35,585 bases of DNA from Candidatus Thorarchaeota archaeon (GCA_020348985.1 CP070761.1:2157217-2192801); one strand, 5' to 3'. Shown: positions 30,018 to 34,409, counted from the stretch's first letter. Notes: generated by a model from the sequence alone, not told the origin. A program made the numbers and translations.

Positions 30018-30219
30018 GCTCCTAGTAGCTTGTTCTCAAGAAGATACACCGCTTCATGATTCTCTTGAAATCACTTGATTCTAGAAACGAGTCAACTAAC
30101 TCTATTGTGCCATCTTGTTGGAACCGAATAGCCTTTCCTCCCCATCACTCTGCCAATCAAATAGAAACTCACGCTAATACTGATACCGACATGATATGCC
30201 CTATTCTCGGGCATAAGAC

Positions 30220-30233
30220 CCGGCATATGCTTG
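30220..30233. promoter_or_regulatory. Putative operator CCGGCATATGCTTG (copy 1 of recurring pseudo-palindrome)
   Basis: Exact reverse complement of 31732-31745; 12/14 match to the reverse complement of 33619-33632. Confidence 0.65.
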
Positions 30234-30262
30234 CTGAATACTCATTTGCTCCTCAGTGAGAG

Positions 30263-31123
30263 TTGACCAGAGTCGTGGAGATGGCAGAAATGAAACCTAA
30301 AACATGTCTTTCCGACGACATTATTGAGGAGTTCATCGGTCTTCATATGGATGTTCTAAGGAGAGTCTTATTGGGTTGTGCCTTTGAAGAGATTGAGCGC
30401 TCTCTGTCCGCGAAGTTCGAAAAGCTCAACTACGAAGTGCTTGCTTCGTTCTTTTCTCTTCTCCATTTCAATGAGCGCGGCCAACTTGACAGGGCCTATC
30501 CGATTTCGCCGGTTCAAACGCCAATTAGTATCTGTGTGGAGGGTATTGGGTCAGGCTATGCTATGTGCGCAATTGACTCGCTGGGTGTGGCCTTTCTTTT
30601 TGGTGCTAAAACTGAAATCAATTCGGTTGACGCAGAGTCTGGTAATCCGATAAGGTTCACAATCGATCCGTACAAAACCCGGCCGAGAAGATTCGCCGAC
30701 ATTGTAGTAAGTTTGCCCATGACTGTTGAGGACGCCGCATTCTGCTGTCCCCACGTCCTCTTTCTAAGCTCCAATGGACGAGGAGATTTGTCGGAGAGCA
30801 CAATAACTTTTGAAGAAGCATTAGAATATGGAAAGACCTTCTTTAGCCGAGACAATATGAGTGAGAAACTGAAGTCGAAGCTGCTACCACTTCTTCACAT
30901 CTACGACTCGGGAAAGCTCACTCGTGATATTCTGATTAGGACAATTAACAGCGGCCGAAGGTTCAGTCTGCTGGGTTCGCTGTTCCCTGATGAATATGGC
31001 AGACTAATAGTGGAAGTCCTTTCTGCGAGAAGGGTAATCCACAAAACTAAGAATGAGGACGGAGAGTTTCTGGACCTCACGCCAAAAGGCAAGAGAATAG
31101 TTGAAACTTTCAGGTTTCGATAA
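30263..31123 (+). CDS. MerB (alkylmercury lyase)-like protein with C-terminal wHTH-like extension
   Basis: AYPISPVQT, YAMCAIDSLG (CxxD), SGNPI, AAFCCPHVLF match the MerB core; start may be ATG 30281/30290. Confidence 0.75.
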   Translation: MTRVVEMAEMKPKTCLSDDIIEEFIGLHMDVLRRVLLGCAFEEIERSLSAKFEKLNYEVLASFFSLLHFNERGQLDRAYPISPVQTPISICVEGIGSGYAMCAIDSLGVAFLFGAKTEINSVDAESGNPIRFTIDPYKTRPRRFADIVVSLPMTVEDAAFCCPHVLFLSSNGRGDLSESTITFEEALEYGKTFFSRDNMSEKLKSKLLPLLHIYDSGKLTRDILIRTINSGRRFSLLGSLFPDEYGRLIVEVLSARRVIHKTKNEDGEFLDLTPKGKRIVETFRFR

Positions 31124-31124
31124 G

Positions 31125-31682
31125 ATGACCTCCAACAGTAGACGAGTCTTAGGAATCGTTGGAAGTCCACGCCGTAATGGGAATACGGATACGCTTGTTG
31201 ATGAGGTATTGGCGGGTGCCAAAGAGAGCGGGGCCTCAACGCAGAAGGTAAGGTTGATTGAGAGGGTTATCAGTCCATGTGGAGCCTGTGATGTGTGTAG
31301 GAAGAAGGGCAAATGTGTACAGCAGGATGACATGTCAGACCTACTTGACGAAATGTGGAGAAGTGATGTCTGGGTATTGGGGACGCCAGTCTATTGGTGG
31401 GGGCCGACAGCACAGTTCAAGGCCTTCTTGGATCGTTGGTATGGTGTAATCAATCAGAGTCATTTCAAGAACAAGAGAATCGTCCTCGTTGTGCCCTTGG
31501 AGGACAACAGTGCTTCGGTTTATGGTCCGATTCTTGACATGTTCAGAGGAATCATCGACTATTTGGACATGAATCACGTTGCAACGGTTCTAGCCACGGG
31601 ATTATTGGAAAAGGCCGCTGCCACAAAGCATGATGAGATTTTGGTGTCCGCAAGAAAAGCCGGACGGGAAGCTGGTCGCTAG
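31125..31682 (+). CDS. Iron-sulfur flavoprotein (Isf) / NADPH-dependent FMN reductase family
   Basis: GSPRRNGNT, CGACDVCRKKGKC (Cx2Cx2Cx5C), DDM, GTPVYW, KAFLDR. Confidence 0.9.
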   Translation: MTSNSRRVLGIVGSPRRNGNTDTLVDEVLAGAKESGASTQKVRLIERVISPCGACDVCRKKGKCVQQDDMSDLLDEMWRSDVWVLGTPVYWWGPTAQFKAFLDRWYGVINQSHFKNKRIVLVVPLEDNSASVYGPILDMFRGIIDYLDMNHVATVLATGLLEKAAATKHDEILVSARKAGREAGR

Positions 31683-31731
31683 TGTGTAAGACTAGGTTCT
31701 GAAACATGAGGACTTATCAGAAAGACGGGTA

Positions 31732-31745
31732 CAAGCATATGCCGG
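31732..31745. promoter_or_regulatory. Putative operator CAAGCATATGCCGG (copy 2), just upstream of a TATA-like CATAAAT
   Basis: Exact 14-bp inverted match to 30220-30233; a further AGCATATGCC core lies at 31777-31786. Confidence 0.65.
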
Positions 31746-31781
31746 CTCATAGCATAAATGCGAAACTTCCCAGAGCAGCAT

Positions 31782-32486
31782 ATGCCAATGTTTGAGATTC
31801 TATTCAGGGTTTCACATGACTGCCCATTCGGCAACATATCTCGGAGATTTCCCGACCTCAAGATGTTTCAATGGTGCAATCGAGAGCACGAGGTCATTGA
31901 ACTGAAAGTGAACTCCCCGGACGAATACTCCAAGGTGCTTCAAGAAGTATCTGAAATAGCCGAGTTGATACATTCAGCTTCAGATGAAGGCAGAGTCCAC
32001 CTTGTGACTCGTATGTGCCAATGCTCTCGCTTTAAAACAGTATCAACCGTCATTGACAAGTTCAACCTTCTTCAGGTTCTTCCTGTGGTTTATGAACAGG
32101 GGTGGGAGTACTATCGAATCATGGCGTTCAGACACGAAGAAATCGAAGAGCTTCTCAAGGATCTCAAGAGTCAGGAGATGACCGTAGAGGTTATCCGTAA
32201 GGTGCCATTTGATGGATTTGTGGCAAGCTCACTATCCCTTACTGCCGGCGCCGTGCTATCTGAGCTCACTGAAAAGCAGATGGACGCACTTGTGACTGCC
32301 TTTGTACATGGTTACTATGAAAGGCCCAGAAGAGCCAATGTGCAGACTATCGCGACTAAGACTCGTGTCCCTAGGTCAACATTTCAAGAGCATCTACGCA
32401 AAGCCGAGAAGAAACTTGTTAATGCACTTATTCCGCATATTCAATTGTATCGAACTCAGGCTACGCAGGCCGAATCTGCTTCTTGA
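31782..32486 (+). CDS. Bat (bacterio-opsin activator)-type HTH_10 transcriptional regulator
   Basis: N-terminal HDCPF..IS sensor-type region; C-terminal LTEKQ..AL..A...GYYERPR......IA......STFQEHLRKAEKKL; probable start ATG 31782 (ORF opens 31758). Confidence 0.88.
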   Translation: MPMFEILFRVSHDCPFGNISRRFPDLKMFQWCNREHEVIELKVNSPDEYSKVLQEVSEIAELIHSASDEGRVHLVTRMCQCSRFKTVSTVIDKFNLLQVLPVVYEQGWEYYRIMAFRHEEIEELLKDLKSQEMTVEVIRKVPFDGFVASSLSLTAGAVLSELTEKQMDALVTAFVHGYYERPRRANVQTIATKTRVPRSTFQEHLRKAEKKLVNALIPHIQLYRTQATQAESAS

Positions 32487-32506
32487 TTGTGTTGACAAAC
32501 TAACTA

Positions 32507-33523
32507 TCATTTGGAGGAACATTCTCGACAAGTTTCAAGTACGGTCTTGGTACTTTCCTCCAAAAGGCATCCTACTTCACCGTGGAAAGCTGTTAGCGTT
32601 CTGATTGTCATACTTTGTCCGCCGTTTCCAGGACTTTCTTGCATTCTTGGATCGGGGCGATTAAGGATATAGATTCCAGTCACTACGAAAACAAGTCCAA
32701 TCATGAAGGTCCAATACATCGACTCTGTTAGGATGACCACGGCGAACAGCGTTCCGGACACAGGAACGAGATTGATGAATCCTCCAGTTCGCGTGGCCCC
32801 CAAGAATTCCAGGCTTTTGAAGTAAATCATGAACGCGGCGAAAGTGGCAAGGACTCCTATGTAGAGAATGTTAATCCAGAAGGTTGGGTCCAGAATGAAG
32901 GGAGACTGCCAGAATCCCTCAAAAAGAGATCCGACACCGAAGAATAACGCACCAAATGTGAAACCACCAAAAGCGGCCTCGGTTGCTGATAGACGCTCTG
33001 TTGTCAACTTTGCGAGACTTGAATACAGTCCCCAAAGAACCATTGCTGCAACAAGAATCAGATTGCCAATCAAATGACTGAATTGGAAATCAATGAGTGA
33101 TTGAACTCCTATCACAAACATGACTCCGACAAATGAGATTACAAAACCAGAATAGTACACTCGTCGTCCCAAACGTTCCTTATGGAATAGGTGAGCAAAG
33201 AGACTCACCGTCGCTGGACTGATTCCCGCTATGATTGCCCCCTGTGCAGACGTCGTGAATCTAAGTCCGTTGAGAAACAGGACCCCATATCCGAAGATAC
33301 CTGTCAGTCCTAACAGCAGCATAAGAACGATGTTGCTCTTCTGGAAGAATCTACGCCATTCAGTCCTTTGACCAATCATCAGTGGAACGAACAAAAGACT
33401 TGCAACGAGAAAGCGGAAGAACCCTATGGTCATGGGGGGTGCCATTGTAACTAGGATTTTGGCTGAGACCCAACTACCTCCCCAAAACATCATCGCTAGA
33501 CAAAGCGCAGAATAGTAAGTCAA
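32507..33523 (-). CDS. EamA/DMT family transporter
   Basis: FWGGSW..AK, FFRF, ~10 hydrophobic segments, GNLIL, INLVPV, LTE. Confidence 0.92.
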   Translation of the reverse strand: MTYYSALCLAMMFWGGSWVSAKILVTMAPPMTIGFFRFLVASLLFVPLMIGQRTEWRRFFQKSNIVLMLLLGLTGIFGYGVLFLNGLRFTTSAQGAIIAGISPATVSLFAHLFHKERLGRRVYYSGFVISFVGVMFVIGVQSLIDFQFSHLIGNLILVAAMVLWGLYSSLAKLTTERLSATEAAFGGFTFGALFFGVGSLFEGFWQSPFILDPTFWINILYIGVLATFAAFMIYFKSLEFLGATRTGGFINLVPVSGTLFAVVILTESMYWTFMIGLVFVVTGIYILNRPDPRMQESPGNGGQSMTIRTLTAFHGEVGCLLEESTKTVLETCRECSSK

Positions 33524-33618
33524 ATCCTTTCCAAGCAGTTTTCATACCTCTCATTTTGTGTCCCGCATCGCGGCCTAGGTAGGAGCAAATACAGCGGCTA
33601 GTGGTCTTAGCCATTCTA

Positions 33619-33632
33619 CCAGCATGTGCCGG
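33619..33632. promoter_or_regulatory. Putative operator CCAGCATGTGCCGG (copy 3) upstream of the EamA gene
   Basis: 12/14 identical to 31732-31745; lies in the EamA/GNAT divergent intergenic region. Confidence 0.6.
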
Positions 33633-33794: not shown

Positions 33795-34409
33795 GTGAGT
33801 GGGAATCTGGTTTGTCTGACGAAGTCAGATTTGGCCAGGGGTGTTGAGGTTCTCATTGATGCATTCTGGGATGATCCCTTGAATCTGTACTTCATCCCTG
33901 AAGGCGAGGATCGTTATAGAAGGCTAAGTGAGTATTTTCAATTCCGACTCAGGTTTGCCATTATCTACGGTGAGGTCTACTCCACGTCTCCCGAATTAGA
34001 AGGAATTGCCGCTTGGTTTCCTCCTGGTAGGAGTGATATGACCAACTCCCGGGTAATGCGGGCAGGTGGTTTGAGACTCATGCGGCACCTGGGAAGAGAG
34101 ACTATCACTAAGATGAGCAGCATAGGTTCTCTTACTGCCAATGTGCGCAAACAGCACCTTCCTGAACCTCATTGGCACCTGTTTCCGATTGCAGTACACC
34201 CGATGCATCAAGGTAAGGGATATGCCAGCACTCTGATGAGACCAATGCTTGATAGGATTCAGGGTGAAGGTCTGCCTTGTTTTCTTGAAACTCTAAATGA
34301 AAAGCTTGTATCTCTGTACGAACATTTCGGATTCGAAGTCATCTTCAAAGAAACAATCCCTGAGGTTGAACTCTCAAACTGGGGCATGGTTCGTTTACCA
34401 AATCCTTAG
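33795..34409 (+). CDS. GNAT family N-acetyltransferase
   Basis: AFWDDP, PHWHL..IAVHP.HQGKG (acetyl-CoA motif A), CFLET, LYEHFGF. Confidence 0.9.
   Translation: MSGNLVCLTKSDLARGVEVLIDAFWDDPLNLYFIPEGEDRYRRLSEYFQFRLRFAIIYGEVYSTSPELEGIAAWFPPGRSDMTNSRVMRAGGLRLMRHLGRETITKMSSIGSLTANVRKQHLPEPHWHLFPIAVHPMHQGKGYASTLMRPMLDRIQGEGLPCFLETLNEKLVSLYEHFGFEVIFKETIPEVELSNWGMVRLPNP

Follow-up and report, generated by a model that had tools for sequence, protein, structure and literature searches.

To our knowledge, almost nothing is known of gene regulation in Asgard archaea and Bathyarchaeia, most of which are uncultured. In haloarchaea, Bat, NarO and DmsR are one-component factors that carry a C-terminal HTH_10 domain and act on nearby promoters, and the sensor domains of Bat are of the GAF/PAS type. 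Here we consider a protein predicted to resemble them in these three general respects, the regulator R1, encoded in a 35,585-nucleotide stretch of a Candidatus Thorarchaeota archaeon genome (GCA_020348985.1, CP070761.1:2157217-2192801; hereafter the window, with positions counted from its first letter), together with a 14-bp pseudo-palindrome that recurs before the R1 gene, before an operon for a MerB-like lyase and an iron-sulfur flavoprotein, and before a gene for an EamA transporter. NarO has been cited as a regulator in Haloferax volcanii, and the denitrification promoters of Haloferax mediterranei carry a 12-bp semi-palindrome with CG ends (PMC10062603), a format broadly similar to that of the operator described below. 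SaoL is a MerB-like lyase of the SAO locus of anaerobes, and its substrate metal is uncertain (doi 10.1101/2022.07.06.499078).

We consider it likely, from the comparisons that follow, that the three copies of the pseudo-palindrome are operators of the adjacent R1, a one-component protein of the family that joins an HVO_A0563_N domain to HTH_10. In a degenerate 14-mer scan of the 3,157,342-bp genome (47.8% GC), CCGGCAYATGCTKG occurs at this locus and nowhere else, and all three of its copies lie in promoter regions: site 1 at 30220..30233 on the plus strand, an exact match before the MerB-like/flavoprotein operon; site 2 at 31732..31745 on the minus strand, the candidate autoregulatory site of the regulator gene; and site 3 at 33619..33632 on the minus strand, before the EamA gene. 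Sites 1 and 2 are exact reverse complements and form the top-ranked inverted pair of the window, with 18 of 20 nucleotides matching, while site 3 differs from them at two positions (12 of 14 matching). In the orientation of their genes, target sites 1 and 3 share a longer string in which the 14-mer is preceded by C and followed by two variable bases and GAAT. Only two one-mismatch matches were found genome-wide, both within open reading frames (of 1,131 and 2,405 codons), and with up to two mismatches the window holds four matches against 0.53 expected. The 14-mer is also the only one common to two of the window's 20 intergenic segments (2,882 nt), and just 0.7% of 300 shuffles gave any such shared intergenic 14-mer; together, the genome-wide scan and the shuffles rule out a chance origin of the repeats. 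An earlier reading of this DNA from sequence only (hereafter the sequence-only reading) had placed the motif at these three positions, with a fourth core at the regulator's start and the longer string at the target sites, had not noticed it in housekeeping intergenic regions, and had tied it to the adjacent HTH_10 regulator as a self-contained system. All four elements are where it put them, the longer string is present at both target sites, and the scan extends the claim of confinement to this locus to the whole genome, the motif not being frequent at random positions.

R1 (31782..32486, plus strand; 234 residues) was identified by Pfam as HVO_A0563_N (PF24280; 77.5 bits against a cut-off of 27) followed by HTH_10 (PF04967; 65.3 bits, cut-off 23.1, spanning residues 170-221 in a 242-residue open reading frame). 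The ATG at 31782 is taken as the real start because the N-terminus that it opens, MP[LM]FE, is conserved in seven paralogues or relatives. The protein aligns over its full length with 53 homologues and with haloarchaeal members of the family. Its model (predicted local distance difference test, pLDDT, 81) has two ferredoxin-like domains (beta-alpha-beta-beta-alpha-beta) ahead of the helix-turn-helix. The sensor carries a conserved CxC plus further cysteines: of 54 homologues, 51-52 retain C32, C79, C81 and H118, and 26 retain C14. A search of the PDB with the sensor returned only generic double-ferredoxin-like matches (the DapE dimerisation domain, Ta1207 and YajQ), so no ligand can be inferred from the fold. 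The earlier description of the regulator as Bat-type thus holds for the DNA-binding domain and fails for the sensor, where Pfam finds no GAF or PAS domain and R1 instead has HVO_A0563_N with its conserved cysteines. The genome encodes four HTH_10 proteins, three of which have this architecture: R1, R2 (1,683,115-1,683,789) and R3 (1,187,406-1,188,074). Literature searches found no published description of HVO_A0563-type regulators or of their operator, and no characterised member of the HVO_A0563_N subfamily.

The evidence that connects the motif with R1 comes mainly from the relatives of R1. A profile search of species genomes gave 80 loci, spread over Bathyarchaeia, Thorarchaeota and further Asgard lineages, and the counts given here are over 81 regulators with HVO_A0563_N and HTH_10, the 110 nt upstream of each being inspected. 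A CCGNCAYRTGNCGG-type palindrome with at most two mismatches, centred 36-62 nt before the ATG, lies upstream of the regulator's own gene in 72 of the 81; 69 of these 72 palindromes stay within one mismatch, and 51 are perfect matches. In 58 of the 81 regulators its centre falls exactly 43 or 44 nt before the ATG, where it abuts the TATA box, with a gap of about 8 nt between palindrome and TATA. The same pattern has a density of 0.14 per kb in the coding DNA of the regulator loci, from which about 0.7 occurrences would be expected in 27-nt upstream windows, against the 69 found with at most one mismatch. Most of 23 metagenomic upstream regions examined carry the same palindrome. In the main Thorarchaeota clade the order is CCGACATATGTCGG and then TAGAGTTCATAAATG; in Bathyarchaeia it is CCGTCAYRTGACGG and then an ATAAATA-type box, and there many homologues carry, about 24 bp farther upstream than the proximal palindrome, a second one. 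A palindrome at -44 likewise precedes each of the R2 and R3 genes, and another lies at a target next to R2. Conservation around homologous regulators had been proposed as a check on the motif, and this footprint bears the proposal out.

The regulator gene of the window fits this architecture. Site 2 has its centre 43.5 nt before ATG 31782, in the register of the 58 homologues, and it is followed after 7 nt by the TATA box CATAAATG (31753..31760, plus strand), which aligns column for column with the TATA boxes of Thorarchaeota homologues. As this box lies about 22 nt before the ATG, the regulator mRNA would be leaderless or near-leaderless. The operators attributed to R1 are asymmetric, each combining one CCGGCAT half with one CAAGCAT or CCAGCAT half, a style common to all three sites. 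Judged by these promoter alignments, the three sites are a local variant of an operator that is placed alike in Asgard archaea, Bathyarchaeia and haloarchaea. A degenerate cluster of half-site-like G-N-CAT elements upstream of site 1 (30186..30214, plus strand), read from the sequence on weak evidence, is possibly a decayed distal site.

Homologues in haloarchaea show the same arrangement with different partners. A tblastn search against plasmids gave 185 records, of which 66 align with 80% or more of R1, with 31-37% identity. At five loci from four genera (L128-L132; on pNRC100, pHM100, pHTUR01 and others) the regulator gene is divergent from genes for a rhodanese/MBL-fold protein and an MFS transporter, with about 88 bp of intergenic DNA between them, and DsrE, TusA, YeeE/YedE or TauE genes are often nearby. 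Four of the five have CCGG-N-CATG-N-CCGG centred about 41 nt before the ATG and then a TTAAT-type box; in the fifth (pHTUR01) one flank is altered, to CGGG. These haloarchaeal homologues retain the CxC and C14, with other cysteines at new positions. The uncharacterised plasmid-borne members (for example VNG_RS12465 on pNRC100 and HFX_RS14905 on pHM100) are thus like R1 in full-length homology, in the CxC and in having a palindrome by the TATA box, and differ from it in a CATG rather than CAYRTG centre, in partners that are rhodanese/MBL-fold (persulfide-dioxygenase-like) and MFS proteins, and in having no MerB-like lyase. The divergent unit looks like an uncharacterised sulfur-stress regulon, and its partner genes suggest that the family senses reactive sulfur or other thiol-reactive signals. 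On sequence comparison, the promoter architecture is conserved across three lineages: Halobacteria, Bathyarchaeia and Asgard archaea.

The base beside the CCG flank varies with the recognition helix of the regulator. Helix TTFQEH goes with half-site CCGTCAT, TTFLEH with CCGACAT, TTFVDH (L111 and L114) with CGTAAT, and TTLQ (R3, L094 and L100) with (C)CGGCAT, while R1 alone has the helix STFQEHLRKAEKK and alone has sites of the CCGGCAT/CAAGCAT type. A unique helix with a unique operator is the pattern expected of a protein-operator pair and is suggestive of one here. As each operator class is largely one clade, the correlation between helix and operator is likewise suggestive and not proof.

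Taken together, these comparisons point to an operator-regulator family that is real and apparently undescribed, with a small local regulon in this genome. From haloarchaea to Asgard archaea, sequence comparison gives its regulators an operator, a promoter architecture that is fixed and an apparent helix-to-base code, and since the operator is conserved in the same place across lineages, part of the gene control of these archaea can be read from their genomes. Genetically tractable haloarchaeal members exist (in Halobacterium and Haloferax), which opens the prediction to experiment. Family members, presumably as dimers, would bind a 14-bp palindrome that has CAYRTG at its centre and is flanked by CCG/CGG, directly upstream of the transcription factor B recognition element (BRE) and TATA box; they would regulate their own genes from a site about 44 nt before a leaderless ATG, and would control one to three neighbouring promoters. 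We infer that R1 is the binder of the three sites in the window. It would recognise a derived, asymmetric operator with a good half, CCGGCAT, and a weaker half, CAAGCAT, and besides its own gene its regulon would hold only the lyase/iron-sulfur flavoprotein operon and the EamA gene. Bound upstream of weak TATA elements, it would activate both target promoters, and the core that overlaps its start would dampen its own expression. The sensor cysteines may respond to a thiol-reactive signal, whether a soft metal or organometal, reactive sulfur, or redox state.

The elements beside the operators bear on this mechanism. At the lyase promoter a weak TATA-like stretch (30241..30253, plus strand) begins 8 nt after site 1 and overlaps ATTTGCTCCT at 30244-53; at the EamA promoter the TATA-like GGCTAAGA / GGTAGAATGGCTAAGA follows site 3 after 8-9 nt, as TATA-like boxes do at the targets of the paralogous regulators. 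The description of both target sites as followed by weak TATA-like sequence is therefore accurate. At the regulator gene, the operator-like core AGCATATGCC (31777..31786, plus strand) overlaps ATG 31782, whose choice the homologues' N-termini back, and with it the presumed transcription start, as the sequence-only reading had it. It belongs to a recurrent set: CAT directly precedes the ATG in seven of the 81 regulators, against about 1.3 expected, and in all seven the start-overlapping core is a 10-12-bp palindrome of the locus's own operator class (in L037 a perfect 12-mer). This recurrence makes a dual autoregulatory layout, upstream and start-site, plausible, and the second site over the transcription start may be read as a minority feature of the family that is compatible with negative feedback. 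TrmBL1-type archaeal factors provide a parallel, in that their palindrome lies upstream of BRE/TATA and some family members have a second site over the transcription start, although the protein family is unrelated to R1; the effect of such factors is set by the position of the site relative to BRE/TATA.

The direction of control is the part of this mechanism most exposed to another explanation. R1 could instead be a repressor that blocks recruitment of TFB/TBP at the three promoters and is released by its signal, as in bacterial derepression of the ArsR, CsoR or CstR kind. The palindrome ends about 8 nt before the TATA box, so that it overlaps or abuts the BRE, a position that fits repression as well; the strong TATA boxes of the autoregulated promoters should need no activator; the start-overlapping core of the seven members stands at a classic repressor position; and cysteine-based stress sensors are commonly repressors. 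Against this, both target promoters in the window have the weak TATA-like elements typical of activator-dependent promoters, and archaeal factors that bind upstream of BRE/TATA, such as TrmBL1, Ptr2, Bat and GvpE, usually activate. We regard repression as a real possibility, though one that we somewhat doubt. A different objection concerns the sites themselves, for only 31732-45 might be functional, with sites 1 and 3 being look-alikes, leftovers of promoter duplication, or operators served by R2 or R3. The extra sequence that sites 1 and 3 share (GAAT and ATTTGCTCCT) is consistent with common descent, their distances to the start codons are atypical, and the half-site of the R3 operator is similar to theirs; yet the orthologous lyase promoter of another Thorarchaeote keeps the palindrome amid indels, the unusual weak half-site is common to all three copies and absent from the operators of R2 and R3, and the rest of the genome, 3.15 Mb, lacks the motif, all of which makes this account improbable. 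It is more improbable still, to the point that we give it very little credence, that the palindrome is read by the MerB-like protein rather than by R1: that protein does end in a MarR/AspA-like winged helix, but more than 100 loci have the palindrome and an HTH_10 regulator with no MerB-like gene, and where MerB-like genes lack such a regulator, the upstream repeats are mostly of another kind (L112, L113 and L115).

Several observations weigh against assigning the three sites to R1 as an activator, and temper our preference for it. The correlation of helix and operator is confounded by phylogeny, no other regulator with the helix of R1 was found for an independent check, and R3, whose half-site (CGGCAT) is similar, could cross-bind. 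The sites are only half-palindromic, and they stand at different distances from the start codons: about 44 nt at the regulator gene, 64 nt at the lyase gene and, to a TTG, about 102 nt at the EamA gene. A convincing TATA box is missing at the lyase promoter, which has a weak box only. Finally, neither the flavoprotein nor an orthologous EamA was found beside MerB-like genes or close regulators elsewhere.

The operon's first gene encodes a MerB-like lyase of 277 residues with a C-terminal winged helix (30290..31123, plus strand; Pfam MerB, 50.9 bits against a cut-off of 27). Its start was corrected to ATG 30290 on the basis of the orthologue's N-terminus and of GGAG 9 nt upstream. Motifs MCAID and FCCP align to MerB, with the counterparts of Cys96, Asp99 and Cys159 conserved; in a 10-member alignment C96, D99 and a cysteine of the aligned CC/CP motif are invariant. 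The model (pLDDT 84.9, predicted TM-score 0.85) has MerB as its top PDB matches (E 1e-8, about 190 columns), and its C-terminal part matches MarR/AspA-like winged helices. The label MerB-like accordingly stands for fold and catalytic positions, and no further: the protein scores 30.1 against 193 bits and 29.4 against 200 bits for the MerB equivalogs NF009710 and NF033555, and its best NCBIfam match, SaoL (NF040728), is at 44.2 bits against a cut-off of 140. It belongs to a small, Asgard-only branch, with 13 members among 5.8 billion proteins, and the literature yielded no description of MerB-like genes in Thorarchaeota. Compared with MerB and the mer operon, the lyase shares the MerB fold and the Cys/Asp/Cys catalytic positions; it differs in its extra winged helix, in its predicted HTH_10 regulator and in the lack of a MerA in the genome, where none scored above cut-off (best TIGR02053 match 274.5 against 454 bits). 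It resembles SaoL in being MerB-like outside mercury-resistance operons, in an anaerobe setting and with an efflux transporter adjoining, whereas SaoL has a Cys-Sec active-site motif in place of the CC of the window lyase (doi 10.1101/2022.07.06.499078). Among the genes of the window, the lyase has FMN_red and the regulator as neighbours, and the remaining eight SAO genes were not seen beside it.

The closest member of the lyase family, from Thorarchaeota LCG1B.62 (L109; 52% identity), has the element CCGACATATGGCGG about 60 nt before its start and GTATAAGT 8 nt later. Despite indels its promoter can be aligned with that of the window lyase, and the family palindrome is kept at the position of site 1, so that the motif does extend to the closest MerB-like orthologue. 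The MerB-like genes at L111 and L114 have, 2.3-4.3 kb away, regulators that share 54-55% identity with R1. The inverted repeats upstream of the genes at L112, L113 and L115 (Heimdall- and Thorarchaeota) are different (TTGTCGA/TTGACA-rich), and a divergent gene there encodes 196-218 residues; the different repeats indicate that the lyase is wired to different regulators within Asgard archaea. This comparison of neighbourhoods leaves out four metagenomic homologues.

One nucleotide after the lyase stop, with a corrected start, lies the gene for an iron-sulfur flavoprotein-like FMN reductase of 185 residues (31125..31682, plus strand; FMN_red, 82.5 bits). It combines the FMN_red fold with a compact four-cysteine motif, CxxCxxCx5C, as in Isf-type proteins, and its best solved relative, 7d38 (E 1.6e-12), has the cysteine motif aligned, which makes this a predicted cluster site. 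The EamA/DMT transporter (32507..33523, minus strand; 338 residues), convergent with the regulator gene, matches PF00892 in two stretches (142 bits), giving the two EamA repeats of that family, and falls below the cut-offs of all NCBIfam exporter equivalogs. EamA genes beside other regulators were rejected as orthologous targets, being 22-27% identical to the window EamA and without the operator. The GNAT gene that follows (33795-34409, plus strand) has its own AT-rich promoter and is probably outside the regulon.

That lyase, flavoprotein and exporter work as one detoxification or catabolic system, as the sequence-only reading proposed, gained no backing from comparison, since the combination was found at no other locus searched: no orthologues of the whole module that would permit direct footprinting turned up in 40 relatives, 185,579 species genomes and a metagenome scan, and the best regulator match to R1 in that material, 61% identical, comes without the module. 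The three-part module is thus unique to this genome among everything searched. A same-genus genome (G001, 98% complete) lacks the lyase and the whole regulator family, and it ceases to be syntenic with the window right after rpl37e, which marks the module as accessory. A mobile element or island was considered and rejected, as base composition is normal and there are no terminal repeats. The locus nevertheless points to a tiny Asgard-only MerB-like branch under predicted dedicated control in a genome without MerA, and so is relevant to the ways in which anaerobic archaea deal with organometals or related thiophilic compounds. In a broader and rather unlikely proposal, R1 would be a cysteine sensor of a thiophilic compound (an organometal, a soft metal or reactive sulfur) that switches on an Asgard-specific, MerA-independent pathway in which the lyase would break a bond between carbon and metal, with the flavoprotein as donor or acceptor of electrons and EamA as the exporter of a product; the HVO_A0563-like family would then be pan-archaeal thiol-based stress regulators whose operator specificity could be read from one or two recognition-helix residues.

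The sequence ATTTGCTCCT noted at the lyase promoter has a second copy at the EamA promoter (33581..33590, minus strand), about 28 nt downstream of site 3 and near the predicted transcription start. Only three of the 14 copies in the genome are intergenic, the ones at the lyase and EamA promoters being two of these. In the L109 orthologue, ATTTGCTACT, about 30 nt past the palindrome, is its counterpart. The element follows the operator after 10 nt at the lyase promoter; at the EamA promoter and at L109 the gap is about 28-30 nt. It may be an initiator region, a second factor site, or a trace of promoter duplication. Also at the EamA promoter (33480-33560, minus strand), an ATG with a Shine-Dalgarno-like GAGAGGT opens a 23-codon frame over the EamA TTG start, in another frame; this could be a small upstream open reading frame, or else the EamA N-terminus may be distorted by a frameshift or an assembly error.

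The paralogues have surroundings of their own. The strict 12-mer core of the family palindrome has four copies in this genome, three of them at R2, at R3 and at R2's neighbouring target. The fourth strict palindrome, CCGACATATGGCG (G000:C1:2830072-2830087), lies at the annotated start of a 526-codon open reading frame. It looks like the operator in the lyase promoter at L109 and could be a remotely placed target for one of the paralogous regulators. Next to R2 and divergent from it is a gene for an ArsR-like HTH_20/DUF7347 protein (L023:7001-7792), after which an R2-type palindrome precedes a gene for a 123-residue protein without a Pfam match.

Across the family, extra palindromes near the regulators are about 3.6-fold commoner in intergenic than in coding DNA, and the target promoters have the order palindrome, about 8 nt, TATA-like box. 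Recurrent neighbours that bear such palindromes are small proteins of about 80 residues, in two groups, DUF3795 Cys-rich proteins, 4Fe-4S ferredoxin-domain proteins and Lumazine_bd_2 proteins. A palindrome lies upstream of eight of 13 DUF3795 proteins (L036, L037, L049, L053, L060, L107 and others), and ferredoxin-domain proteins of about 255 residues recur as neighbours, as do Lumazine_bd_2 proteins; the recurrence of these three kinds of protein suggests a redox or Fe-S theme of the family regulons. No homologue of the 80-residue proteins was found near R1. Elsewhere these small proteins (about 75-95 residues, without a Pfam match; for example L045:3650-3889(-), L082:3639-3905(-) and L057:4817-5068(-), with about 30 similar loci) are the most frequent neighbours of the regulators, divergent in Bathyarchaeia and convergent in Thorarchaeota, and may be a conserved partner or a co-regulated effector. 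Their own upstream palindrome is present in 12 of 22 members of one group and 11 of 13 of the other, and both groups end in a helix of the form EA-R-LE-RK-A-A-L ... SF-I-R/C.

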